The notes under the pieces were generated by a model. It saw nothing but the letters and a program-made list of their open reading frames with translations. It ran no database searches and had not been told where the DNA came from. The translations under genes were made by a program, and so were the position numbers. Positions 29,952 to 42,578 of a stretch of DNA of 64,000 nt are shown here, piece after piece. Each line of letters begins with the position of its first letter. The stretch's first letter is position 1. The DNA comes from an uncultured Actinomycetota bacterium. Its GTDB lineage: Bacteria > Actinomycetota > Actinomycetes > JAFAQI01. The stretch spans positions 67,979-131,978 of the forward strand of contig CAVYQE010000007.1 of assembly GCA_963770565.1 (NCBI GenBank), given 5' to 3'.

Positions 29952-31004
29952 ATGGGGTCAACGAAGGCGGCGGTCCTCGCCGCATCGGCAGGGGTATGAT
30001 TGCGATGGTCGGGCTGTCGGCCCCGACTGCGGCCGTCGGCCAAGGCGCCGTCGACGAAGCCGCTCTCGTCGGTCGAGATCAACAGCCCGTCGATCACGGT
30101 CACGACGTCGACGCACCACACGCTGAAGCTGAAGGTGAGTGCGTCCGACTTCGTCTCCCTCGGCAACCCGGACAACAGCCCGGGCTCGATCGACGTCCAG
30201 CTCGGCACGCCGAACGGGCGTGAGGCGCACGGCTGGATCTTCGCGCTCGCGGCTGGTTCGATCACCGACCACGTCAGCACCAGCACCGGCGTGGCGACGA
30301 CCGGCCCGCATCAGATCTCACCGTTCGGCCGGGTCCGCCTTACCTTCAGCCCGGACGGCCCGAGCTCGACACTGAAGTGCGGCAAGACCACGGTCGTTAC
30401 CCGGCACGTCAAGATCGCGGCGGCGATGTCGTTCGACACCTCGTCCGCGTGGGGGAGCGTCGGCAGCTACCCGGCCAAGACCCACTTCGGCCGCGGCACG
30501 CTACGCACCCAGTACGGCGGCGCGCCGTGCCCCGCACCGGCCGAGTTCACGACCTGCGTCACCAACGTCACGTGGGGCGCGCAAGGGACTCCGCTGACGC
30601 TGACCGGCGGCTGGACCCGCCGGCACGGCAAGAAGCACGGCACGATCACCGGGGAGCGGGTCGTGAGCCTGTCGACCCCGGCCGACGCCGACCGGATCGA
30701 CCTCGTGACGCTGCCGGCGCCACTGCCGAAGCTCACCGACGTGGGCGGGATCCCGACCCTGGCCGTCACGACCTCCGGCGGGCAATCGGTCGGCAGCGCG
30801 ACGCTCGCATCGACGACCGCCGAGCATCCGAGCAAGGTGACCTGCAACTCCACGCACCATCACGACCTGCAGACCACCTGGACGTCGGCGTCGTACACCA
30901 ACGGCACCACGCCGCTCGCCGTACACGAGCAGATCGAGGGCACGCTGACCCTGCCGGACTCGGCCACGGACGGCTACATCCAGCGCAACACCAGGCTGAA
31001 CTGA
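29952..31004 (+). CDS. Secreted Thr/Ser-rich hypothetical protein; 5' end disrupted by apparent frameshifts (about 29995 and 30032)
   Basis: A signal-peptide-like N-terminus can be pieced together across frames, followed by a long GC3-rich ORF to 31004. Confidence 0.6.
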
Positions 31005-31020
31005 CGAAGGACTGCAGCCG

Positions 31021-31872
31021 CTACTGGCGGTGGTAGAGCACGTCGCGGATGTCGATGACCGGCGCGATCCGGTCCTCGATCGCGGCCCTGACCACGTTGC
31101 CGTCCGGCCGGGCGATGACGACCTCGTCGCGGGTGACGAGCAACGGTCGGTCGAAGCCCCGGTCCTCCATCGTCGTGAGCCGGGCGGCGGCCGCCGAGAA
31201 CGCCGGATCGATCCGGTTGAGGTCGAGCCAGCCCCGGTTGCGCATCGGTACCGCGACGGTGCGCATGCCGTCCGGCAGGCCGTCGACGATCGCGTGCCGC
31301 AAGGTGCGCGAGCCGAGCAGGGTCACGACGTCGCAGTCGCCCATCGGGCGCAGTTGCGAGTGCCGCTCCAGCCGTTGGGCGGCCATCTCGCCCATCCGCT
31401 CGAGGTAGACCACGGCGGTCGGCCACCACGGCGAGGGCTCGATCCCGGCCGATCGCAGAAGCTGGTGCGGGATCGGCAGGACCAGGTCGGGTTGCTCGAC
31501 ATCGAGCCCGACGAAGCCGAACCCGAGGTCGAGGGTGTCGCCGAGGATGCGGCGGCGGACCCAGTCAAGGCCGGGATGAAGCGGCGACTCGACCCACGCG
31601 CCGTACGGCCGGGCCCGCTCGGCCAGGTCCTCCAGCGGCCGATCGGCGAGGGAGCGCCTGAGCTGAAACCAGCGGCGCAGTCGCAGCCGGGCCTGCTCGG
31701 TCGAGGGCGGTGCTCCGGCGAGTGCGCGCCGGCACTCGGCCCAGGTGATCAGGATGTCGACGGAGCCGGGCAGGAGGACGCCGTCCGGTGCCGGCAGCAC
31801 GTCGACGTCATGCATGACGGCAACGGCGAGCGCGCACTGGCGAAGGTGTTGGGCCTCCGGCCAACTCGACAT
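31021..31872 (-). CDS. Hypothetical protein
   Basis: 283-aa GC3-rich ORF; no motif recognised. Confidence 0.7.
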   Translation of the reverse strand: MSSWPEAQHLRQCALAVAVMHDVDVLPAPDGVLLPGSVDILITWAECRRALAGAPPSTEQARLRLRRWFQLRRSLADRPLEDLAERARPYGAWVESPLHPGLDWVRRRILGDTLDLGFGFVGLDVEQPDLVLPIPHQLLRSAGIEPSPWWPTAVVYLERMGEMAAQRLERHSQLRPMGDCDVVTLLGSRTLRHAIVDGLPDGMRTVAVPMRNRGWLDLNRIDPAFSAAAARLTTMEDRGFDRPLLVTRDEVVIARPDGNVVRAAIEDRIAPVIDIRDVLYHRQ

Positions 31873-31903
31873 GTCGGGACGGTATCCAATCCGCCGCAGG
31901 TGC

Positions 31904-32419
31904 TTAATACATCGACCGGGTGAATGTCCCATTTTCGCCGCGTGAAAGGGGGAACTTTCGGGAAGGTTGCTCCGGTTGGCCCACGATGTCGAGCCGATCG
32001 CGGTGGTAACCCGGACTCGGGGATCCGATCTGGCGGAAGCCGAGCCGCTCGAGCAGTCGCCACGACGGGATGTTCCCGACGTGCACCTCCGCCTCGATTG
32101 CCGTGACCCCGGGTTGTTCGGCAAGCCACTCGACCAGCGCCGCGACGGCGCGGCCGCCGAGTCCCTGACCCCGGCTCGACGGGGCGAGTCCGTAGCCGAT
32201 CTCGACCGTGCCGGATGCATCCGGTGCGGCCTTCGTGCCGCACTCGCCGGCCACCCGCTCGTCGTCGTCGATGATCAGGAAGCCCCAGCCGCCCGTGGAG
32301 AGGAAGCTCAAGCCCGGCGCGGTGTCCTCGTGCGGCCATCCCGGCGCGGCGTCCAGGCTGCCGAGGTCCCCGCGGAGGGCGGCGTCTCGGCCCGCGCGGT
32401 CGAGCGGCAGCAACCTCAC
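31904..32419 (-). CDS. GNAT family N-acetyltransferase (RimJ/RimL-like)
   Basis: VEIGYGLAPSSRGQGLG, NIPSWRLLERLGF. GTG overlaps the rnd stop. Confidence 0.85.
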   Translation of the reverse strand: MRLLPLDRAGRDAALRGDLGSLDAAPGWPHEDTAPGLSFLSTGGWGFLIIDDDERVAGECGTKAAPDASGTVEIGYGLAPSSRGQGLGGRAVAALVEWLAEQPGVTAIEAEVHVGNIPSWRLLERLGFRQIGSPSPGYHRDRLDIVGQPEQPSRKFPLSRGENGTFTRSMY

Positions 32420-33636
32420 GACTCGTCGGCCATCGCGGTGCTCAAAGGTCCCGCGGTGAGTGCGACCTGCCACCGTCTCGCCCCGCCGTCGGTGAGGTAG
32501 GCGGCGATCTCGTCCACCTCGGTCGACGGCGGCGACCAGGCCAGCCGGCGGACCAGGTCAGGGGTCAGCAAGTTCTCGACCGGGACGTTGTGTTTCTCCG
32601 CCAGCTCCGCCAGCACGGTGCGGGCCCGCGCGAGCCGGCCCGCCGCGGCCGGGTCGCGGTCCGGCCAGCGGCTGGGCGGTGGTGGCCCGTCGCCGGCCGG
32701 TGCCGGCCGGGGAAGGGCGCTGTCGGCGAGCTCGTACGTCGCGGCGACCGTCGGCCACAGCTCGCCCACCAGCCGCCGGGTCGACCGCCCGCCCCAGCCC
32801 GGCAGCTTGCCGAGCTGTTCGGCGCTGCTCGGCGACATCGCCGCCGCAGCAATGATGGCGCTGTCGGGGAGCACCCGCCCGGGCGCGATGTCACGGGTCC
32901 TGGCCCGCGCGTCGCGCGCCTCCCACAGGGCCCGAACGAGCGCGAGCTGGCGGCGGTTGCGGAGCCGGTGGATCCCACTGGTACGCCGCCAGGGGTCCGC
33001 GCGTGGCGGCGGCGCGACCGCGTTGAGCACCGCCTCGAACTCCTCCCGAGCCCACTCGAGCTTGCCCTGGTCGCGGAGCTCGGTCTCGAGCGCGTCGCGA
33101 AGGTCGATCAGGATCTCGACGTCGAGAGCGGCGTAGCGAAGCCACGGTTCGGGAAGTGGCCGGCGGGACCAGTCGGCGGCCGAGTGCTCCTTGGCGAGCG
33201 CGACGCCGAGCAGCACTTCGGCCATGGTCGCGAGGCCGACCCGTTCGAAGCCGGCCAGCCGGGCTGCCAGCTCGGTGTCGAACAGCCGGGTCGGATGCAG
33301 GCCGGCTTCCCGGAGCGACGGCAGGTCCTGCGACGCCGCGTGCAGCACCCACTCGCTGTCCCGGATCGCGTCGGAGAGCGCGCTGAGGTCGCCGAACGCG
33401 GTCGGGTCGATCAGGACCGTTCCGCTCGGCTCGCGCCGGAGCTGGATCAGGTAGGCCCGCTGGCCGTAGCGGTAGCCCGAGGCGCGCTCGGCATCGACGG
33501 CGATCGGCCCGGTGCCGGTGGCGATGGCCGCGATCGCGGCCTGCAGCGGCGGGAGGGTGTCGATGACCGGGGGGACGCCGCCGCGCGGTTCAGTGAGCGG
33601 TATCGGTGGTGCTGAAACGTCCGCGGTCTCGCTCAC
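32416..33636 (-). CDS. rnd: Ribonuclease D (DEDDy exonuclease + HRDC)
   Basis: AVDAERASG, LHAASQDL, LFDTELA, YAALDVE, HRDC domain. Confidence 0.92.
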   Translation of the reverse strand: MSETADVSAPPIPLTEPRGGVPPVIDTLPPLQAAIAAIATGTGPIAVDAERASGYRYGQRAYLIQLRREPSGTVLIDPTAFGDLSALSDAIRDSEWVLHAASQDLPSLREAGLHPTRLFDTELAARLAGFERVGLATMAEVLLGVALAKEHSAADWSRRPLPEPWLRYAALDVEILIDLRDALETELRDQGKLEWAREEFEAVLNAVAPPPRADPWRRTSGIHRLRNRRQLALVRALWEARDARARTRDIAPGRVLPDSAIIAAAAMSPSSAEQLGKLPGWGGRSTRRLVGELWPTVAATYELADSALPRPAPAGDGPPPPSRWPDRDPAAAGRLARARTVLAELAEKHNVPVENLLTPDLVRRLAWSPPSTEVDEIAAYLTDGGARRWQVALTAGPLSTAMADES

Positions 33637-33667
33637 AGCCCAGACGTTAGTGGAAGCCTGCCAGCGA

Positions 33668-34348
33668 CTAGCGGATCACGCCGGCGCGCATCGCCATGGC
33701 GACCATCTCGGCGCGGTCGCCGGTGCCGAGCTTGCGGGCGATTCTGGCCAGGTGGCTCTTCACGGTGAGTGCGGACAGTCCGAGCGCCTCACCGATCTCC
33801 TTGTTGGACCGACCGTCGGAGACCAGGTGCAGGACCTCGATCTCGCGGCCGGACAACTCGGCGACGCCGTCCTGTTGGGGGCCCCCACGCAGGCCGGCGG
33901 CGAGCAGCGAGGCAACCGACGGGTCGGCGTACACGCCGCCGTCGAGCACCCGGCGGACACCATCGGCGACCACGAGCGGCGAAGCGGACTTCAGCAGGTA
34001 GCCCTGGGCACCGGCCACGAAGGCCGCCCGGACCGAGTAGGGGTCGTCCGCAGCGGACAGTACGACGAGGCGCGGCCAGCCGGCGGCGCGAAGGTCGCTG
34101 AGCAGGTCGAGCCCGGAGCCGTCGGGCAAGCCGACGTCCAGGACGCACAGGTCACGGGTGCCACCGGCATGGGCGCGCGCACGCGCCTCGGCGATGCTCG
34201 CCGCCTCGACGACGTCGCGGGCACCCATTGCGGTCAGTCGGGCCACCATCGACTCGCGCACCAGCGGGTGGTCGTCGACCACCATGGCGGTGAATCCACC
34301 CGCGGGATCCGCGGCAGTGGCGGCAGCGCGCTCGGCGAGTGCTGACAC
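33668..34348 (-). CDS. NarL/LuxR family response regulator
   Basis: VVDDHP, LDVGLPDG phosphoacceptor, LSA, GYLLK; HTH LSGREIEVL...SNKEIG...TVKSH. Confidence 0.93.
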   Translation of the reverse strand: MSALAERAAATAADPAGGFTAMVVDDHPLVRESMVARLTAMGARDVVEAASIAEARARAHAGGTRDLCVLDVGLPDGSGLDLLSDLRAAGWPRLVVLSAADDPYSVRAAFVAGAQGYLLKSASPLVVADGVRRVLDGGVYADPSVASLLAAGLRGGPQQDGVAELSGREIEVLHLVSDGRSNKEIGEALGLSALTVKSHLARIARKLGTGDRAEMVAMAMRAGVIR

Positions 34349-34629
34349 CGAGTCCTCCTCCGTCTTGGCCGTCTGTTGGCGGCGCCGTCATTTAGCGCTT
34401 GGAGCATTCTTCGGTTGCGATTGAGCCTTCCTGTAGCCCGGCGGGGGTAGTCGTTGCTCCGTCCGGCCCAATTTCTCATCGACCTGTTCTCTGCGGCGAT
34501 TACTCGGCAGATGGCCCTATCCCCACTACTCCAAACGGGGGATTGGGCCGAACGGACCCCAAGTATGAGGACGCGTGTGCCGACAGTCAGGGAAGCGTGG
34601 AATGAGTCTGCGCCGGGTCGGGAGGACGC

Positions 34630-36162
34630 GTGCTCGTGCACCGAGTGAAATGGGCACTTGCCGCCTTGGCTGTCAGTGCCCTCGCGCCAGTGCTTTCGAC
34701 CGGTTCCGCAGCGGCCTCGGCGCCGGTCGCCAAGGGTCCTGCGGTCCGGGCGATTGTCACCGTCCGGCCCGGTACGGCGCTGCCGTTGGCGGTCCCTGGT
34801 GGCCGTGTGCTCGACTCGTTCAGCCACGTTCGCGCCGAGCTCGTCTCGGCGCCGCGGGCGGCGCTCACCGCCCTCGCCCTCAACCCGGCCGTGCTCGGCA
34901 TCTCGCCCAACTGGCGTGGCCAGGTCATGGGCCTCGGTCGCTTCCACGGCGGTCACTTCCACGGCGACGACAGCGTGCTCGCCCCCCAGTCGGTCGGCGG
35001 CGACGCCGGCCAGCCGGGCGTCGGCGCGGGTGTCACGGTCGCGTTGCTCGACACCGGGGTCAACAACACCCCGGCGATCAACCGGGCATCGGGCCGGCTG
35101 ATCGACGGCATCAACTTGGCGCACCTCTCGGCCGGCGGTCCGGCCTTGACGGTCGGGCCGTTCCACGATGGATATGGCCACGGCACGTTCCTCGCGTCGC
35201 TGATCGCCGGCGGCCCGGTGCCGGGGAGCAACGGTCTCGGCGTCGGCGTCGCTCCCGCGGCGCACATCATGGTCGTCAAGGTGGCCGGCGCGCGCGGGCG
35301 GACCAGCCTGCTGCAGGTGCTGGCCGGCCTCGACTGGGTCGCGACGCACGCCAATGAGATCCAGGTCGTCAACCTCTCGCTCGCGGTCGAGCGCCCGACC
35401 GCCCCGGCGTACGGCGCCGACCCGCTGAACGCCGCGATCGAAGCGGTGCGCGCCGCGGGTGTCCTCGTGGTCGCGGCCGCCGGCAACACCCCCGGCCAGG
35501 TCGGCGACCCGGGTCTCGACCCGCAGTCACTGACCGTGGGTGCCCTCGACCTCAGTAGCCATTGGCCACAGGTCGCGTCGTTCTCCGGCAGCGGTGTGGT
35601 CGACGGCGTGGTCAAGCCCGACGTCGTCGCCGCGGGCGTCCACGTCCTCGGCGTGATGAGCCCGCACACCCTGATCGCTCAGCAGAACCCGATCGCCTGG
35701 CAGCCCGACGGGCTGTTCCGCGGCTCCGGGACGAGCGAGGCGACCGCGATCACCTCCGGTGTGGCGGCGGCATATCTGGCCGACCACCCGGGCAGCACTC
35801 CGCTTCAGGTCAAGACCGCATTGCGCACCGGCGCGCAGCCGCTCTGCGGCTGGGGCTCCGGTGCGGGCGCAGTCACGATGAATGACTCGGGTAACCACCA
35901 CGGGTGCTGGCGGGGCCGGGGTCACGGCTCGCCCGATCCAACCGGCGAGGCGTCGTTCAACCCGGTCGAGTGGGAGGCGAACTCCTGGCTGCACGGCGCC
36001 TGGGTGCCGTGGCTGGCCTCGTCCTGGTCGGCGTCCTCGTGGTCCGCGTCCTCATGGTCAGCCAGCTCCTGGTCGGCCTCGTCCTGGTCGGCCAGCTCCT
36101 GGTCCGCCTCGTCGTGGTCGGCGTCGTCGTGGTCCGACGAAGGCTGGGGTCCGGCCGGATGA
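34630..36162 (+). CDS. Secreted S8 subtilisin-like peptidase with C-terminal Trp pentapeptide repeat tail
   Basis: Signal peptide, prodomain, LDTG, DGYGHGT, AAAGN, GTSEA, then (ASSWS)x8. Confidence 0.92.
   Translation: MLVHRVKWALAALAVSALAPVLSTGSAAASAPVAKGPAVRAIVTVRPGTALPLAVPGGRVLDSFSHVRAELVSAPRAALTALALNPAVLGISPNWRGQVMGLGRFHGGHFHGDDSVLAPQSVGGDAGQPGVGAGVTVALLDTGVNNTPAINRASGRLIDGINLAHLSAGGPALTVGPFHDGYGHGTFLASLIAGGPVPGSNGLGVGVAPAAHIMVVKVAGARGRTSLLQVLAGLDWVATHANEIQVVNLSLAVERPTAPAYGADPLNAAIEAVRAAGVLVVAAAGNTPGQVGDPGLDPQSLTVGALDLSSHWPQVASFSGSGVVDGVVKPDVVAAGVHVLGVMSPHTLIAQQNPIAWQPDGLFRGSGTSEATAITSGVAAAYLADHPGSTPLQVKTALRTGAQPLCGWGSGAGAVTMNDSGNHHGCWRGRGHGSPDPTGEASFNPVEWEANSWLHGAWVPWLASSWSASSWSASSWSASSWSASSWSASSWSASSWSASSWSDEGWGPAG
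36016..36135 (+). repeat. 8 x 15-bp coding tandem repeat encoding ASSWS
   Basis: Units such as GCCTCGTCCTGGTCG, GCGTCCTCATGGTCA and GCCAGCTCCTGGTCC encode an identical peptide with variable codons. Confidence 0.95.
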
Positions 36163-37568
36163 GCGCCTCCGCGCAGGTACGACTCCTCGCCGTCGCCGCA
36201 ATCGTGGTGACGGCGCTGACTGCCGCCCTGAACGGCTGGGGCGGCCCCGAGTGGTACGCCGTATTGATCCTTGCGGTCGCGGTCGGCGCCGCTGAGACCG
36301 CCGTCGTCCACCTCTCGTTCGGTCGCCAGCGCTGGACCTTCAGCCTCACCGAAGCCGCGATCGCGATCGCATTCGTGCACTCGCCACGGGCCTGGACCGT
36401 GCTGGCCGTGACCGTCGGCGTGCTGGCCGCGCAGCTGATCCGCCGCCAGGAGTCGCTCAAGGTCTTGTTCAACGTGTCTCAGTTCGCCGCGGCGACCGCG
36501 CTCGGCGCCGGGTTCGCGGTGCTCGTGGGGTCCGGCGTGCCAGGGGCGATCGGCGGCATGGGCATCTTCTGGCTGGTCAACAACCTGATGATCGCCTCGG
36601 CGATGTCGGTGATGACCGACCAGGGCTTCCGCTCGCTGCTGTGGGCGAGCGCCCCGCTGGCCTCGATCCACTCGGTCGGCACTTCGGGCATCGGCATTCT
36701 CGCCGCGTGGCTGGCCGTCAATGCGCCGCTCGGCCTGCTCGCCCTGGTGATCCCGCTGCTCCTGCTGTGGATCTCCTACGACGAGCAGACCACGTCCGCG
36801 GCGGAGGCCCAGCTCTACGCGGAGCTGGCCCGGCTGCAGGAACGCGCGAGCGGTCGGTCCGTCGACGTGTCGGCGCGAGTCGTCCTGACCGCCGCCGCCC
36901 GGCTGTTCGACAGCGACGACGTCGAAATGGTGCTGCTCGCCGAGGACGGGCCGGTGCGTTACGCCGGCAACGTCGACGGCGTGGTCCGCCAGCGGGTGGA
37001 CCCGGAGGCACTCGACGTTCCCTGGGTGCTCCGCGCGCTCGGCGAACGTGGCGCGGTCACCGGCAGCGACGCCGGCCGGCCGTGGTGCGCCACCGTGCTC
37101 GGTGGCCACGAGGCGCCGCTCGCCGTGCTGGTCGCCCGGCGCCCGGTCGGCGGATCGGGCTTCGGTCGGCGCGAAATGATGCTCGCCGAAGTGCTGGTCC
37201 AGCAGGCCGAGTCATGGCTGTCGATCGCGGAGCTCGCGGCCTCCCGGGACGAGGCGCTCGCCCACGCCGAGGCGGCCGAAGACGCGGCCCGTGCGCTCGG
37301 CGACCTCGGCGCCGACACCGCTCCCTCACTCGTCGTACTCCGCGAGTCCGCCAACCGGTTGGCCCGGCTCGCCGCCACCGAAGGCCCGGCGTCGGTCCAC
37401 GAGATCGTCGACGAGCTGTACGCCGTCGAGCGAGCGGTGGCCTCCTTGCTCGGCGCGATCGCGCTCGCCGCCGAGCCCGACCTCGGGCGGCTCACGATCG
37501 ACGACGACGAGCTGCCGGCGCAGCGCGGTTCCTCGGAATGGACGACCACCGGGGTGCTCACGTCATGA
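36159..37568 (+). CDS. Multi-TM sensor-like membrane protein with GAF-like and helical C-terminal region, no catalytic output domain
   Basis: ATGA overlap with the peptidase stop. About 6-7 hydrophobic segments in the first ~205 aa, then ...LAVLVARR...GFGRREMMLAEVLVQQAESWL. Confidence 0.75.
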   Translation: MSASAQVRLLAVAAIVVTALTAALNGWGGPEWYAVLILAVAVGAAETAVVHLSFGRQRWTFSLTEAAIAIAFVHSPRAWTVLAVTVGVLAAQLIRRQESLKVLFNVSQFAAATALGAGFAVLVGSGVPGAIGGMGIFWLVNNLMIASAMSVMTDQGFRSLLWASAPLASIHSVGTSGIGILAAWLAVNAPLGLLALVIPLLLLWISYDEQTTSAAEAQLYAELARLQERASGRSVDVSARVVLTAAARLFDSDDVEMVLLAEDGPVRYAGNVDGVVRQRVDPEALDVPWVLRALGERGAVTGSDAGRPWCATVLGGHEAPLAVLVARRPVGGSGFGRREMMLAEVLVQQAESWLSIAELAASRDEALAHAEAAEDAARALGDLGADTAPSLVVLRESANRLARLAATEGPASVHEIVDELYAVERAVASLLGAIALAAEPDLGRLTIDDDELPAQRGSSEWTTTGVLTS

Positions 37569-38575
37569 GGCTGCTCAGGGGTCGGGTCGCACCAATCGCC
37601 GCGCTGGTCTTCCTGCTCGCGCTCGCAGCAAGTTGCTCGGTGGTCGCCGCCTCCGCATCGTTGTTGAAGGTCACCGGTCACGTCCAGGTGCCGATGTGGG
37701 AGGCGCTGCTCGCCGCCGCGCCGGCCGGCCTGGTCATCGCGGGGATCGCGACGATCGCCAACGTGCAGGCAACCCGCGCGGTCCAGCGGATGCAGTCGCG
37801 GGCCCGGACCGTCGACGCGCTGCAGCGCCGGGTCCGGATCGCGGACGAGGTCGCCGAGCGGCATCGCCGCAACGCCGAGACCGCGAGCGCCGGCATGTTC
37901 GAGCTGCTCTCCGGCCTGGTGGCCGCCGAGGAGGGCGCCCGCGGCCAGCTCGCGGCCGAGTTGCACGACACCGTGGCGCAGTCGCTCACCACCGCCCAGG
38001 TCATGCTCAACGACTACGACAACCCCGACAGCGTCCGGCGCGCGAGGGACCTGATCAGCGAGGCCGAGGAGCAGGTTCGCGCGGTGATGGCCCGCACCCG
38101 GCCGCCGGCGCTGCGCGACGGCGACCTGGCCCGGGCGGTGTCCAGCCTGCGCGACGATCTCCGCAACCGCTACGCGATCGAGGTCGAGCTGTCCTGGCCG
38201 GGTGAGGCCTACCCGCTGCCGCTGGTGACCGCGGTGACGACGTACCGGTTCTTCCAAGAAGGCCTGCTCAACGTCGTGAAGCACGCCGACGTCGACAGCG
38301 CCCGCGCCCAGCTCTGGGTGGACGAGGACTGGGTAGTCGCCACCGTCGTCGATACCGGGCTCGGCTTCGACCCGGACTCGGTCCGCTCGGAGGGCGGGCG
38401 GCACGTCGGGCTCGGCCTGCTGCGCGAGCGGGCCCGGCTCGTCGGGGGATCGTTGGACGTGATCTCGAACCCGGTCCGCGGTACGACGCTGACCCTGCGG
38501 CTGCCAAGGTCGAGCGGTGCGGTCGGCTCGGTGAGCCGCACCCGGGCGCCGGTCGTGGTCAGTGAGCGCGTCTGA
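37565..38575 (+). CDS. Sensor histidine kinase (HisKA_3 type)
   Basis: H-box AELHDTVAQSL, N-box QEGLLNVVKHA, DTGLGF, GLGLLRER, GTT. Two N-terminal TMs; ATGA overlap. Confidence 0.92.
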   Translation: MRLLRGRVAPIAALVFLLALAASCSVVAASASLLKVTGHVQVPMWEALLAAAPAGLVIAGIATIANVQATRAVQRMQSRARTVDALQRRVRIADEVAERHRRNAETASAGMFELLSGLVAAEEGARGQLAAELHDTVAQSLTTAQVMLNDYDNPDSVRRARDLISEAEEQVRAVMARTRPPALRDGDLARAVSSLRDDLRNRYAIEVELSWPGEAYPLPLVTAVTTYRFFQEGLLNVVKHADVDSARAQLWVDEDWVVATVVDTGLGFDPDSVRSEGGRHVGLGLLRERARLVGGSLDVISNPVRGTTLTLRLPRSSGAVGSVSRTRAPVVVSERV

Positions 38576-39149
38576 TCAGTCGCCGTTTCGGGATCGCCAC
38601 CACGCCGGGCGGGATCGGCGGCAAGCCGGCCGCCAGGCAGAGCACCTCACCGAACGCGACCAGATGCGGACCGAGATCGCCATCGGGTGACCACGAGGCG
38701 CGGATCTCGACGTCCGAGGCGATCGGCTGGTCGGTCAGGGCGCCGAAGCGCTCGGAGGTCGTCCGGGTGACCGTCCCGCCTTCCGCGGTGTAGACCGCGC
38801 CGGCCGCCTCGAGCGCTTCGATCAGCCAGCTCCAGCCCACGCCCGCGAGCATCGGGTCGTTCGCGATCTCCGGGTCGACGGCGGCCTGCACATAGGCGAC
38901 GCAGCGGGTGTCGCCGGCCCAAACCTCCTGGCCGTCCGGGTCGTGGAGCACGACCAGCCGGCCCTCGGCCAGCTCCTCGTCGCCGGACATCGCGGCGGCG
39001 TGCAGGGCCACGGCGTACGGCGCCAACCGCTGCGGCGCGGGCAGCTCGTGGATCACGATCTCGGGTCGGAGCTCAACGCTGGTAAGGCCGGCCAGCGCCG
39101 CGCGGAATGCGGGCGGTAGGTCGGCCGGCGCGGACAGCTCCACCGACAC
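38559..39149 (-). CDS. DUF3000 family protein
   Basis: PAPQRLAPY, GRLVVLHDPDGQEVW, VGWSWL, GTVT, EIRASWSP. Confidence 0.9.
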   Translation of the reverse strand: MSVELSAPADLPPAFRAALAGLTSVELRPEIVIHELPAPQRLAPYAVALHAAAMSGDEELAEGRLVVLHDPDGQEVWAGDTRCVAYVQAAVDPEIANDPMLAGVGWSWLIEALEAAGAVYTAEGGTVTRTTSERFGALTDQPIASDVEIRASWSPDGDLGPHLVAFGEVLCLAAGLPPIPPGVVAIPKRRLIRRAH

Positions 39150-39245
39150 CCGGTCACTGTAAGCGCCCGGATCGCGGTGATCACCACGACACGCGACCCT
39201 CGCGGCAGACGTTCACTTGGTGCCGCGGCATTAGCCTGACCCGTT

Positions 39246-40100
39246 GTGGCCACGGTCCTGGCGTTGCTCTCCAGCGCGCTGTGGGGGACCGCGGACTTCC
39301 TCGGTGGGACCGCCTCGCGGCGCCTTCCGCTGGTCGCTGTGGTGGCGATCAGCGAGACCTTCGGCCTCTGCGGGTTGCTGGTCGCGGCCGCCGCGACAGG
39401 TGCCTTCGGCGCACCGGACGGGTACGTGGTCTGGGCGCTGCTCGGCGCGGTCGCGGGGACCGGCGGGCTGCTCGCCTTCTACGAGGCGCTCGCCACCGGC
39501 AAGATGGGCGTCGTCGCCCCGATCGCGGCGCTGGGCGTCGCGGTGCCGGTCCTGGTCGGGATCGGGCAGGGCGACCGGCCCAACCTGCTGCAGGGGGCCG
39601 GGGTCGTCGTCGCCGTACTCGGGGTGGTCCTGGCGAGCGGTCCGGAGCTCCGCTCGGACGGCGCCGCCGGCACCCGGGCCGCCCGGCCGCTGGTGCTCGC
39701 GGTCATCGCCGCGATCGGCTTCGGCGGGGTGTTCGTCACGATCGCCCATGGCGCCGAGACCAGCACCTTGATGACGCTGGTCGTGATGCGAGCCACCTGC
39801 ATCGTGTTCCTGTTCGGCTTCGGTCTGCTGACCGGGCGCGAGAAGCTGGCGGTCGGGATCCGCGACCTGCCGATGCTTGCCACCATCGGTGGGTTCGACG
39901 TCACTGCCAACGTCGCGTTCGGCTACGCCAGCCAGCACGGGCTCCTCTCGCTCGTCGCGGTCCTCTCGTCGCTCTACCCGGCCGTGACCGTGGTGCTGGC
40001 CCGCACCGTGCACGCGGAGCGGCTCAAGCGGGTGCAGCTGACCGGAGTCGTCGCCGCGCTTGCCGGGGTGGCATTGCTCGCCGCCGCCGGGGCCGGCTGA
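39246..40100 (+). CDS. DMT/EamA family transporter
   Basis: WGTADFLGG, about 10 TMs, LSSLYP...ERL. Confidence 0.88.
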   Translation: MATVLALLSSALWGTADFLGGTASRRLPLVAVVAISETFGLCGLLVAAAATGAFGAPDGYVVWALLGAVAGTGGLLAFYEALATGKMGVVAPIAALGVAVPVLVGIGQGDRPNLLQGAGVVVAVLGVVLASGPELRSDGAAGTRAARPLVLAVIAAIGFGGVFVTIAHGAETSTLMTLVVMRATCIVFLFGFGLLTGREKLAVGIRDLPMLATIGGFDVTANVAFGYASQHGLLSLVAVLSSLYPAVTVVLARTVHAERLKRVQLTGVVAALAGVALLAAAGAG

Positions 40101-40131
40101 GTGGGCGCGGGCCGCGTGACACGATCGAGGA

Positions 40132-41191
40132 ATGCCCGACCTCGCTGACAGTGCGTTCCTGCGTGCCTGCCGTGGCGAGCCGGGCCCGCACACCCCGGTG
40201 TGGTTCATGCGGCAGGCCGGGCGCTCGCTGCCGGAGTATCGCAAGGTCCGCGAGGGTGTCGGGATGCTCGAGTCGTGCCTGCGGCCCGACCTCGTGGTGG
40301 AGATCACCATGCAACCGGTCCGCCGGTATGGCGTGGACGCCGCGATCCTCTTCAGCGACATCGTGTTGCCGGTCAGGGCGGCCGGCGTCGATCTCGACAT
40401 CCAGCCCGGCGTCGGCCCAGTGGTCGCCGAGCCGATCCGCACCGCCGCCGACGTCGAGCGGATCGCGCCGCTCGACCCCGACACCGTCTCGCCGGTCGCC
40501 GACGCCGTGCACAACCTGGTGGCCGAGCTGGGTGGCACCCCGCTGATCGGGTTCGCCGGCGCCCCGTTCACGCTCGCGTCGTACCTGGTCGAGGGCGGGC
40601 CGAGTCGTGATCACGCCCGCACGAAGGCGCTGATGTACGGCGACGAAGCCACCTGGCATGCGCTCGCCGGCCGGCTCGCCGACATCGCGGCGGCCTACCT
40701 CCGGGTGCAGATCGATGCCGGCGTTGCGGCGGTCCAGCTGTTCGACTCGTGGGCCGGCGCGTTGTCGGCAGCCGACTACGAGCGCTACGTGCTTCCGCAC
40801 AGCCGTCGGGTGCTCGACTCGGTGGCCGATGTGCCACGGATCCACTTCGGGGTCGACACCGGCGAGCTGCTCGGCGCTGATGGCGGGGGCCGGCACCGAG
40901 GTGGTCGGCGTCGACTGGCGGGTGCCGCTCGACGTGGCAGCGCAGCGGGTCGGGCCGGGTGTCGCGCTGCAGGGCAACCTCGACCCGGCCACCGTCTTCG
41001 CGCCGTGGCCCGTGGTGGCCGAACGCGCACGTGCGGTGCTGCGCAGCGGCCGGTCCGCGGCCGGGCACATCTTCAACCTCGGTCACGGCGTGCTGCCCGA
41101 GACCGATCCCGACGTGCTGATGCGGCTGGTCGAGCTGGTCCACGAGGACTCCGCGAGCTACCCGGTCGGCGAGGACTCGGCCTCCGCGTGA
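40132..41191 (+). CDS. hemE: Uroporphyrinogen decarboxylase; apparent +1 frameshift near 40873
   Basis: [27 protein letters not shown]; after the shift QGNLDP and IFNLGHG. Confidence 0.93.
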
Positions 41192-42578
41192 GCCGGGTTG
41201 TGGTCGTGGGCGCCGGTATCGCCGGTCTCGCGGCCGCGCACGCCCTCGCCGGCGACGGAGCCGACGTCACCGTCGTCGAGGCGACCGACGTGGTCGGCGG
41301 CAAGCTGCGGATTTCCGAGGTCGCCGGCGTGCTCGGTCGACGAGGGCGCCGAGATGTTCCTGCGCCGGGTGCCGGAGGCGCTCGACCTGGTCGACGCGCT
41401 CGGCCGGTCCGGCGAGCTGGTGTCTCCGCGTACGACGACCGCGAGCGTGTGGGCCCGCGGCGCGTTGCGCCCGATGCCGCCGCGCACGGTGATGGGCGTG
41501 CCGAGCGACCCGGCGGCGCTGCGCGGGGTGCTGTCCGGCGCGGAGGTGGCCCGCGTCGAGCTGGACCGCGTGCCTGCCCGGCCGCCACCGGCCGCGGCTC
41601 CCGACGGTGACGTCTCGGTTGGTGCGTGGGTCGGTCGGCGAGTCGGCCGGGCGGTCGTCGAGCGGCTGGTCGACCCGCTGCTCGGCGGGGTCTACGCCGG
41701 GCGGGCCGACGAGCTGTCGCTGGCCGCGACGATCCCGCAGCTGCCGCGCGACGAGCGGTCGGTGCTGGCCGCGGCGCGGCGGATCGTGCCGGCCTCCGCT
41801 CCGAGCGAGCCGGTCTTCGCGACCGTGACCGGCGGGATGGGCTCGCTGCCGAGCAGCGTGGCCGGCGGCGATTCGCGCGCGCGGCGGCGTGGTCACGACC
41901 GGACGAGCGGTGCGCCGGCTCGAGCGGGTCGAACGCGGCTGGCGGATCGTGCATGGCGCGACCACGGACGAGCAGTCGATCGACGCGGACGCGGTGGTGC
42001 TGGCGGTGCCGGCCGCACCCGCTGCGCGCCTGCTTGCCGACATCTCGCCCTCGGGCGCGGGCGAGCTGGCCTCGATCGACGCCGCCAGCATGGCGATCAT
42101 CACCACTGCGTGGCGGCCGGCCGACGTCCCGGAGCTCGACACCAGCGGCTACCTGGTGCCGGCCGTCTACGGCCGCACGGTGAAGGCGGTGACCTTCACG
42201 TCCTCGAAGTGGCGGCACTTGGCCGGTGCGGACGCGGTGATCGTGCGGTCCTCGATCGGGCGGCAGGGCGACGTCGCCGACCTGCAGCGCGACGATGCCG
42301 AGCTGGTCGAAGCGGCGGCCGCGGAGCTCACGACGTACGCCGGGTTTGCGGGTATGCCGATCGATGCCCGGGTCAGTCGCTGGGGTGGCGGGTTGCCGCA
42401 GTACGCGGTCGGTCACGTCGCGCGGGTGGCCCGGATCCGCTCGGCGGTTGCCGCGGTGCCCGGCCTCGCGGTGTGCGGCGCGACGTACGACGGTGTCGGC
42501 GTGCCGGCCTGCATCCGGACCGGTCGAGCCGCCGCTGAGCAGGTGCTGGCGAGCCTCAGGAGCCGCGAAGACCGGTGA
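41188..42578 (+). CDS. hemY: Coproporphyrinogen/protoporphyrinogen oxidase HemY; apparent +1 frameshifts near 41332 and 41864
   Basis: [40 protein letters not shown] and GVGVPAC, spread over successive frames. Confidence 0.9.

Follow-up and report, generated by a model that had tools for sequence, protein, structure and literature searches.

We describe a four-gene locus in a 64,000-nt stretch of contig CAVYQE010000007.1 of assembly GCA_963770565.1 (“the window”; all coordinates given here are window positions). In this locus, a secreted subtilisin-family (S8) peptidase that ends in a run of Trp-containing pentapeptides is encoded directly ahead of a stand-alone membrane transducer and a histidine kinase, and a response regulator is encoded divergently from the three. 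Judged by gene order in the genomes sampled, the tailed protease and the membrane domain of the transducer are a recurrent gene pair, whatever the output to which the membrane domain is joined. A recurrent pair wired to different outputs points to an undescribed way for actinobacteria to sense their surroundings. The features of the locus are as follows.

33668-34348, minus strand: NarL/FixJ-type response regulator (REC plus GerE helix-turn-helix), 226 amino acids, divergent from the operon
34349-34629: divergent intergenic region, 281 bp separating the starts of the regulator (34348) and S8 (34630) genes
34630-36162, plus strand: secreted S8 (subtilisin-family) peptidase, 510 amino acids, Pfam PF00082
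35971-36147, plus strand: part of the S8 protein in which every fifth residue is Trp (residues 448-506)
36159-37568, plus strand: stand-alone membrane transducer, 469 amino acids
37565-38575, plus strand: HisKA_3 histidine kinase, 336 amino acids

The sequence itself shows that the three plus-strand genes are chained by ATGA stop/start overlaps, at 36159-36162 between the S8 and transducer genes and at 37565-37568 between the transducer and kinase genes. A first-pass annotation of this DNA had reported the same chain (overlaps at 36159 and 37565), a peptidase with an intact D/H/N/S site and an (ASSWS)x8 tail, a HisKA_3 kinase whose two transmembrane (TM) segments enclose almost no sensor loop, and, head-to-head with the peptidase across about 280 bp, a NarL-type regulator with all of its phosphorylation-pocket residues. 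Every detail of that description, from the genes and overlaps to the catalytic residues, tail, kinase and regulator, is confirmed by the open reading frames (ORFs), translations, alignments, Pfam matches and by-eye readings presented below.

Recurrence of the protease-sensor gene pair

The loci on which the pairing was assessed were sampled rather than censused, and related genomes are not independent of one another. A full-length orthologue of the transducer is present in 23 of the 24 other genomes of the same family, in 2/2 genomes of a second family in the order and, elsewhere in the class, in 2 of 14 more families; with this query, no orthologue was found at E ≤ 1e-20 in 56 genomes from other classes of the phylum. 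The surrounding genes are largely kept. Among 20 related loci, the transducer is immediately preceded by an S8 gene in 19 and followed by the kinase in all 20 (L013 being partial at a contig end), while the divergent regulator is found in 19, with the remaining locus (L022) cut by a contig end. The same four-gene layout appears in six of six loci from other families. The 4-nt overlap between the S8 stop and the transducer start, present here, recurs in 14 of 19 orthologues.

Used by itself as a query, the tail retrieved 225 proteins, and all 120 of the matches listed carry PF00082. The 25 shorter tail matches are all C-terminal fragments of S8 genes, with no unfused W-x4 precursor among these 25, an absence that fits an obligatory fusion and equally a tether. 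At the DNA level, a pattern of six TGG codons at 15-nt spacing was matched in 214 of 301 genomes of the class, where a reversed control pattern was matched less often, yet not never (this tally, like that of the transducer profile given below, takes in the unpublished genomes G278, G032, G060, G055, G067, G057 and G049). Within the 4.43-Mb source assembly, the six-Trp pattern at this spacing occurs only at the present locus. Thirty loci returned by the pattern comprised 10 that were unrelated repeats or out of frame and 20 with in-frame C-terminal W-x4 tails; 19 of these 20 show S8 homology, the twentieth being truncated by a contig start. The ORF that comes next matches, in 19 of the 20 tail loci, a hidden Markov model built from the membrane domain of the transducer (E 7.6e-12 to 2.3e-82; 18/19 when locus L056, from unpublished genome G278, is left out), and the single exception adjoins an apparent mobile element near a contig end. 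For six further S8 paralogues found by homology, the TM-domain ORF follows in every case. The association also holds in reverse: among TM-domain homologues chosen by membrane-domain similarity alone, regardless of Trp, 11 of 14 in one set and 15 of 20 in another were immediately preceded by an S8 gene with a W-x4 tail, two of the misses having too little upstream sequence.

The tail loci form two groups. In one, a stand-alone transducer orthologue is followed by a HisKA_3 kinase, as here; in the other, the module of TM and GAF domains (TM-GAF) is fused to an output, and the S8 protein is 30-45% identical to the one described here. Seven of the fused loci end in GGDEF-EAL, five in PAS-HisKA-HATPase and two in PAS-SpoIIE-HATPase_c_2. 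The first-pass annotation had proposed tabulating the downstream neighbors of repeat-tailed S8 genes, and would have given up its reading had they lacked any conserved linkage to the sensor domain; the tabulation reveals conserved linkage, with consistent coupling to the same TM domain and varied outputs (kinase, GGDEF-EAL and SpoIIE). On the gene orders seen, the coupling of S8 gene and TM domain is strong, not absolute or obligatory.

How widely the module is spread can be gauged from a profile of the transducer, which at E ≤ 1e-5 hit 85 of the 121 genomes sampled from the class, some of them as many as ten times. In the 20 listed genomes without a profile match, the Trp pattern was not in excess over the control, bar one genome with an out-of-frame match. 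The type of repeat tracks the clade of the TM domain, and co-resident systems in one genome carried different repeat units in all cases seen, which fits insulation of the channels from one another, or simply old duplications.

The protease, its tail and the neighboring proteins

The S8 protein matches Peptidase_S8 (PF00082) with 120.7 bits against a cut-off of 21.8, over residues 132-409, and its catalytic residues D141, H184, N286 (the oxyanion Asn) and S369 are all invariant in 25 aligned S8 sequences. A Sec-type signal peptide (residues ~1-31, read by eye, AAASA/P) is followed by a prodomain-like unit with an I9-like fold (38-98), the catalytic domain (132-409), a conserved pre-tail motif (~436-462) and the Trp-repeat tail. 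In the AlphaFold2 (AF2) model, the prodomain-like unit and the catalytic domain are confident; the former is a confident beta-alpha-beta unit but has no Pfam I9 match at E ≤ 0.1. The translation contains no lipobox, no C-terminal TM anchor and no hydrophobic C-terminal stretch. The nearest solved relatives are the subtilisin-like proteases 9ues and 3afg (E ~1e-24) and subtilisin BPN'. Several more specific identities were considered and rejected. For a mycosin (the subtilase of type VII secretion), NCBIfam TIGR03921 scores 103.6 bits against a cut-off of 278.75, and a polar Trp tail stands in place of the C-terminal TM anchor; for the anti-phage protein IteS, PatA/G and a germination protease, all scores fall far under the NCBIfam cut-offs. 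PF07483, a different Trp-rich C-terminal Pfam domain (PMC2605481), is not reported for the S8 protein at E ≤ 0.1.

The core of the tail is exactly (ASSWS)x8 (residues 463-502, nt 36016-36135), and the protein ends in DEGWGPAG. Tandem Repeats Finder reports a period of 15, 8.0 copies and 77% matches in the DNA of the tail. Its eight identical peptide units are written in seven DNA forms, which differ on average at 3.3 of 15 nt, always synonymously; even the serine codon switches between TCN and AGC, two units using AGC where the others have TCN. The Trp columns are invariant in the 25 aligned sequences, and a W-x4 tail is found in 19 of 19 orthologous S8 genes. The 15 orthologues of the ASSWS type have 172 five-residue units between them, of which 121 read SASSW without deviation and are spelled by 68 DNA versions; the units that differ are mostly the first two and the last. 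The S8 proteins over their whole length are 42-94% identical (tblastn). More distant orthologues use other, internally uniform units (AMSWS, AATWS, TRTWS and SNGWG), and across the S8 tails, the Trp and the period of five are universal, nothing else. Copy number ranges from 6 to ~20 among relatives. Because identical units are encoded by so many synonymous DNA versions, the codon comparison indicates that the peptide of the tail is under strong purifying selection. The tail is predicted to be disordered by itself, since its predicted local distance difference test score (pLDDT) in the AF2 model is ~24 from residue 454 onward.

In some relatives, the protein continues for another 20-60 residues past the repeats. 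Two such endings occur among loci L085, L088, L089, L099, L100 and L132: in the clade with PAS-HisKA-fused transducers, the tail runs on into a conserved extension of ~40-60 residues with the motif FLTAFWG..P, and in the WYG/WLG clade, an acidic linker leads to a final short Trp motif at the very C-terminus. On the nucleotide level, the frame of the transducer is itself open upstream across the tail repeat (35904-37568, plus strand, 554 amino acids), where it reads as a hydrophobic stretch. We rejected this extended frame as coding: it is closed in most orthologues, whose open frames measure 471-483 amino acids, and the variation of the repeat DNA is synonymous only in the S8 frame. The upstream opening is probably a by-product of the composition of the repeat.

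The first-pass annotation described the 469-residue product of the second gene as a multi-TM protein. This is borne out, and the protein is more than that: AF2, Foldseek and VIA together add a predicted cytoplasmic GAF-like domain and a conserved helical bundle, arranged as follows.

36165-36845 (residues 3-229): membrane domain of 8 helices, with a beta-hairpin at residues 50-61
36861-37139 (residues 235-327): GAF-like domain
37167-37472 (residues 337-438): helical bundle

The AF2 model of the transducer (55 sequences) has a pLDDT of 90.6. Compared with solved structures, its GAF region matches 3jab_B in Foldseek (E 3.4e-4, TM-score 0.71 on the target) and reaches Z 15.6 in VIA at a root-mean-square deviation (rmsd) of 3.0, with 158/161 residues aligned; the matches of the two methods are to GAF domains of phosphodiesterases (PDE) and DosS. 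Pfam gives no match above any cut-off for the transducer, GAF included, and matches GAF at the same position in 13 of 14 fused relatives. A search of the ESM Atlas returned only the protein's own clusters (“hypothetical protein”, Actinomycetota), and the leads below 0.9 were GAF/HisKA_3 and PrsK-type kinases.

For the membrane domain, two resemblances were found. MASE9 (PF20972) matches the transducer with 18.1 bits against a cut-off of 24.3 (E 0.0027), which is below the gathering score; it is carried by 2 of 120 transducer homologues among the matches listed, and two fused relatives have weak MASE9 matches. MASE9 is described as an 8-TM sensor domain with a short hairpin, proposed to bind its ligand within the membrane (10.1101/2021.11.05.467447). 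The transducer model agrees with that description in its eight membrane segments, its short hairpin (50-61) and its very short outer loops. By our own reading of the topology with the positive-inside rule, both ends of the domain are cytoplasmic and the four outer loops are 3-6 residues long. The residues common to all S8-coupled TM domains are E45, E64, K100, F103 and N104.

The other resemblance comes from a fold search of the transducer over ~48,000 representative solved chains, carried out with a method independent of Foldseek. Among its best matches is the S-component 4hzu_S of an energy-coupling factor (ECF) transporter, which aligns to residues 26-190 with Z 14.1 and rmsd 3.4 (159/164 aligned). 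Five other S-components, 4huq_S, FolT, ThiT and RibU among them, match the same residues with Z 11.5-12.7, each over nearly the whole chain, and CbiM/NikM-type chains match residues 3-191 with Z 13.9 (4m5c_A, 184/214 aligned) and 12.0. We treat an ECF S-component-like fold of the modelled membrane domain as a lead. S-components are membrane proteins built for binding small ligands from outside, and the resemblance would be apt because of this binding. No EcfT or EcfA gene is found among the ORFs of 30000-42000 or in the six flanking ORFs scanned against Pfam.

No part of the transducer is better conserved than the helical bundle (80-94% identity within the family), which is a candidate docking surface for an equally conserved juxtamembrane helix of the kinase (residues 85-135). 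Whether the bundle might be a degenerate HisKA_3 dimerisation domain was considered and rejected, as the His of its “ELH” is present in 31 of 55 sequences and a profile-profile comparison with the kinase gives a probability of 0.2. In one other genome (G039:C3:1238-2641), the transducer orthologue is interrupted by two in-frame TAG codons.

The kinase itself matches HisKA_3 with 25.0 bits (cut-off 24) and HATPase_c with 44.4 bits. Two N-terminal hydrophobic helices (nt 37586-37765), read by eye from the translation as stretches ~8-34 and ~44-67 that lie ~9 residues apart, precede an H-box ELHD with H134 and the HATPase_c domain at residues 227-315. Across 17 orthologues, H134 does not vary, and the juxtamembrane stretch 85-135 varies little if at all. 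By this architecture, the kinase is of the intramembrane type, which would have to obtain its stimulus from a partner. The first-pass annotation had cast the multi-TM protein as a separate sensor controlling this kinase, and such a split arrangement is supported by relatives that have this TM-GAF module and a kinase in one protein: because these fused forms exist, the stand-alone transducer probably works with the neighboring kinase.

The divergently encoded regulator matches Response_reg with 64.4 bits and GerE with 63.6 bits, and its pocket residues DD25-26, D71, S98 and K120 are at the expected positions (read by eye). DevR, ChrA, VraR and NarL are its nearest solved relatives by sequence. 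It lies below every NCBIfam equivalog cut-off (NarL 104 versus 250), so that no named orthologue is assigned. The regulator is 85-100% identical in 19 related loci; in six loci of other families, identity is 83-88% in five and 54% in the sixth (L093). It is far more conserved than its three neighbors, with the S8 protein falling to 42-60% and the membrane protein to 50-60% (loci L013-L032 and L090-L095). This degree of conservation suggests a constrained and important regulon, or set of partners, beyond the operon.

Within the intergenic region, alignments of 15 loci reveal short blocks that are kept across genera, and an inverted-repeat scan finds one pair of arms.

34431-34440: conserved block CTGTAGCCCG
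34454-34467: conserved block TTGCTCCGTCCGGC
34513-34524 / 34538-34549: inverted repeat
34529-34542: conserved block CTCCAAACGGGGGA
34561-34564: conserved block AAGT
34578-34583: conserved block TGCCGA

From their conservation, the blocks are probably promoter or regulator sites; a sigma-70 consensus promoter was not found in the intergenic region, and no binding motif was identified in the conserved blocks. A structured leader RNA or riboswitch is rejected for now, there being no Rfam match in the region and no compensatory change in any of the 10 pairs of the consensus fold.

Possible meanings of the pairing

The explanation that we favor, and hold to be probable by a modest degree, is that the locus is a member of a widespread actinobacterial protease-coupled membrane sensor module that feeds an intramembrane-type kinase and a very conserved regulator. 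The subtilase would be secreted by the Sec route and held at the cell surface by its Trp-repeat tail. The tail would act as the coupling element, docking, probably multivalently via its Trp side chains, at the outer-leaflet face or in a ligand pocket of the 8-TM domain, with its ECF-S-component-like fold and almost no extracellular loops. The state of the protease and its tail (docked, substrate-engaged or clipped) would then travel through the TM domain into GAF and the helical bundle; the transducer, having no output of its own here, would control the adjacent loop-less kinase; and phosphate would pass from the kinase to the divergently encoded NarL-type regulator, whose targets would include the conserved promoter blocks between the divergent genes and probably sites elsewhere. 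We infer the physical contact, the direction of signalling, the stimulus, the partnership with the kinase and the autoregulation. What argues for the explanation as a whole is the combination of synteny, translational coupling, a tail specific to S8 proteins, association in both the forward and the reverse direction, promiscuous outputs, selection on the tail, tracking of clades and the predicted fold.

Several observations weigh against this explanation. Six of 32 assessable TM-domain homologues have no upstream S8 gene, and one lineage, genera g6 and g11, has transducer, kinase and regulator but no S8 gene at the orthologous locus. Adjacent genes are inherited together, which makes the agreement between repeat type and TM clade compatible with co-evolution and no proof of it. 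The residues E45, E64, K100, F103 and N104 lie towards the cytoplasmic side in our topology, not on the outer face. The Z of 14.1 for the S-component is barely above the ~13 that helical bundles reach by chance according to the note accompanying the tool. The tail is disordered by prediction. In the source genome, finally, two weaker membrane-domain homologues, L125 (contig C8 193034-193720, E 5e-14) and L126 (contig C2 348743-349432, E 8e-9), sit in a 675-residue EAL protein and a 1251-residue protein, neither of which has an upstream S8 gene.

In the S8-less loci (L030 of G009, and those of G014, G019, G263 and G279), the regulator is directly divergent from the transducer, and the best S8 homologues of these genomes are paralogues with the units WNASA, WDSNA and WNSSA, each beside its own TM-GAF protein. 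The transducer of this lineage is more diverged (TM domain 53% versus 71-74% in sister lineages), along its whole length. Relaxed selection on the outer face was not seen in this single lineage, the outer-face residues being not specially affected.

The same components could make a self-processing peptide signal, as the first-pass annotation proposed. In this model, the protease cuts its own tail after each Trp and frees many copies of one pentapeptide (SASSW here), which the transducer would bind in its membrane pocket, either as an autoinducer or as a gauge of how active the protease is. At P1, subtilisins favor bulky hydrophobic residues, and the Phr pentapeptides of Bacillus are freed by subtilisin-type proteases. 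Cleavage is spoken for by the uniformity of the units, since interior repeats within a protein are identical as peptide while their DNA drifts, by a copy number that varies from 6 to ~20, as expected of a multi-copy precursor, and by Trp, the sole invariant position, being a plausible P1. The catalytic residues are invariant as well, an S-component-like fold would suit a small ligand, and the differing units of co-resident systems would give orthogonal channels. Against this stand the lack of spacer or recognition sequences between the units, the lack of an unfused precursor among the matches examined, and the lack of a peptide exporter or importer in the locus (ORFs of 30000-42000, with Pfam scans of six flanking ORFs); the 20-60 residues that follow the repeats in some relatives fit a structural tail better. 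Because of the missing spacers, the extra C-terminal extensions of some clades and the missing precursor, we favor, without insisting on it, a tethered tail over released peptides, and consider the peptide signal unlikely. Taken to its full extent, the idea would describe an actinobacterial family of signalling channels, in which a subtilase cuts its own tail into Trp-ending pentapeptides that are bound within the membrane by a receptor derived from an ECF S-component. A genome could hold as many as about ten such channels, orthogonal to one another and each spelled in a repeat “word” of its own, with two-component, cyclic di-GMP (c-di-GMP) and partner-switching outputs behind them; the signal would tell of cell density or the occupancy of the protease with outside substrates. 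We regard this larger picture as rather doubtful.

It may also be that protease and sensor never touch. The protease, a nutritional or envelope-maintenance exoprotease, would then merely be co-expressed or regulated with its neighbors, its tail would anchor it non-covalently to the wall or membrane surface, and the TM-GAF protein would sense something else within the membrane. Protease genes do adjoin the two-component systems that regulate them (MprAB-PepD, CssRS-HtrA), Trp-rich segments favor membrane interfaces, and some TM-domain homologues, as well as one orthologous lineage, have no adjacent S8 gene. MASE9 has been proposed as an intramembrane ligand binder (10.1101/2021.11.05.467447). 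Such an arrangement leaves unexplained why the tail is found only on S8 genes beside this TM domain, across c-di-GMP enzymes, kinases and a PP2C phosphatase, and equally the overlap of stop and start codons, and we think it improbable. Less probable by far is control from the inside out, whereby a cytoplasmic signal read by the GAF domain would alter the TM domain and make it hold or release the protease by its tail, much as LapD acts on the periplasmic protease LapG. The transducer has a cytoplasmic GAF domain of the ligand type, many relatives carry GGDEF-EAL and the protease has no anchor of its own, as this would require; the C-terminal domains, however, are typical transmitter outputs (HisKA-HATPase, SpoIIE) that suggest an outside-in flow, and a kinase and regulator come next here. 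Lowest in our estimate, and very improbable indeed, is a membrane protein that acts as an enzyme or sorting factor on the tail, in the way of exosortases or rhombosortases on C-terminal sorting signals. An 8-TM protein encoded beside a protein with an unusual C-terminal signal, with Glu45, Glu64, Lys100 and Asn104 conserved within the membrane, brings this to mind. It has, however, no conserved set of Cys, His and Ser residues and no Pfam or NCBIfam match to a sortase-like or CPBP family, its membrane domain is followed by GAF and signalling outputs, and the tail is without the TM helix and basic cluster of known sorting signals.

Related systems and surroundings of the locus

Among the closest parallels to the module that we favor are LiaFSR and BceRS-AB, which share with it a two-TM, nearly loop-less kinase, an accessory membrane protein in the same operon that presumably supplies the stimulus, and a NarL-type regulator. 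Here, however, the accessory protein consists of 8 TM helices with a GAF domain and a bundle and has no similarity to LiaF or to ABC transporters, and a secreted protease is a fourth conserved component. The systems MprAB-PepD and CssRS-HtrA likewise have a secreted serine protease encoded with a kinase-regulator pair, but those proteases are of the S1C/HtrA type with PDZ domains and serve as outputs or feedback, whereas here an S8 protease with a unique tail is paired with a sensor domain rather than with one output. LapD-LapG would lead one to expect a LapG-type cysteine protease, in contrast to the S8 protease here, and the present transducer is without HAMP and GGDEF-EAL.

The nearest peptide analogy is Phr/Rap of Bacillus; with it and other Gram-positive peptide signalling, the locus has in common a subtilisin-type protease and five-residue units in extracellular signalling. 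It differs from Phr/Rap, Agr and Com in carrying its repeats on the protease itself instead of in a precursor gene of their own, in lacking an Opp importer and a Rap-type receptor, and in that the candidate receptor is a membrane domain. The resemblance to ECF S-components is one of predicted fold of the membrane domain only, with no sequence-family match, and the domain is fused here to GAF and signalling domains. A biophysical analogy for the tail is offered by the GW/WG “Ago-hook” repeats of the GW182 type, which are disordered tandem repeats with small flanking residues and Trp as the only invariant position. In the Ago hook, the individual Trp residues are received in pockets of the partner, and avidity arises from their number. 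GW182 is, by contrast, eukaryotic and cytoplasmic, unrelated by descent, and without a strict period of five or identical units.

MASE-type membrane-embedded sensor domains are common, and to our knowledge the stimulus is known for almost none of them; the clade of MASE-like domains described here comes, as a whole, with a fixed and genetically linked extracellular partner. The domain shares with MASE9 its eight segments and hairpin, charged membrane residues, very short periplasmic segments and promiscuous outputs, and differs in that its outputs are HisKA, GGDEF-EAL, SpoIIE or none rather than HD-GYP, and in its protease, to which the passages on MASE9 mention no link (10.1101/2021.11.05.467447). 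Compared with all of these systems, the module belongs to none of the families; it is, in our reading, a kind of accessory-protein-dependent sensing, and possibly more. In open-access papers and preprints, we found no description of these repeats or of a link between a subtilase and a MASE-type domain, and the named homologues among the matches listed are called “hypothetical protein”, “S8 family serine peptidase” or “serine protease AprX”. The tail is, in our experience, among the most strongly conserved short peptide repeats in bacterial proteins. If the coupling is true, it would provide a new input module for actinobacterial kinases, c-di-GMP enzymes and PP2C phosphatases, a role for many genes annotated as “S8 family peptidase / AprX” and “hypothetical protein”, and a possible source of orthogonal sensor-ligand pairs.

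The four-gene locus is flanked by an RNase D-like gene and a DUF3000 gene. Two long ORFs, upstream of a GNAT gene and the RNase D-like gene, have no Pfam match at E ≤ 0.001.

30000-31004, plus strand: long ORF
31021-32220, minus strand: long ORF
32416-33636: RNase D-like gene
38559-39149: DUF3000 gene

By the composition of the window, GC content is ~0.70-0.75 around the locus.

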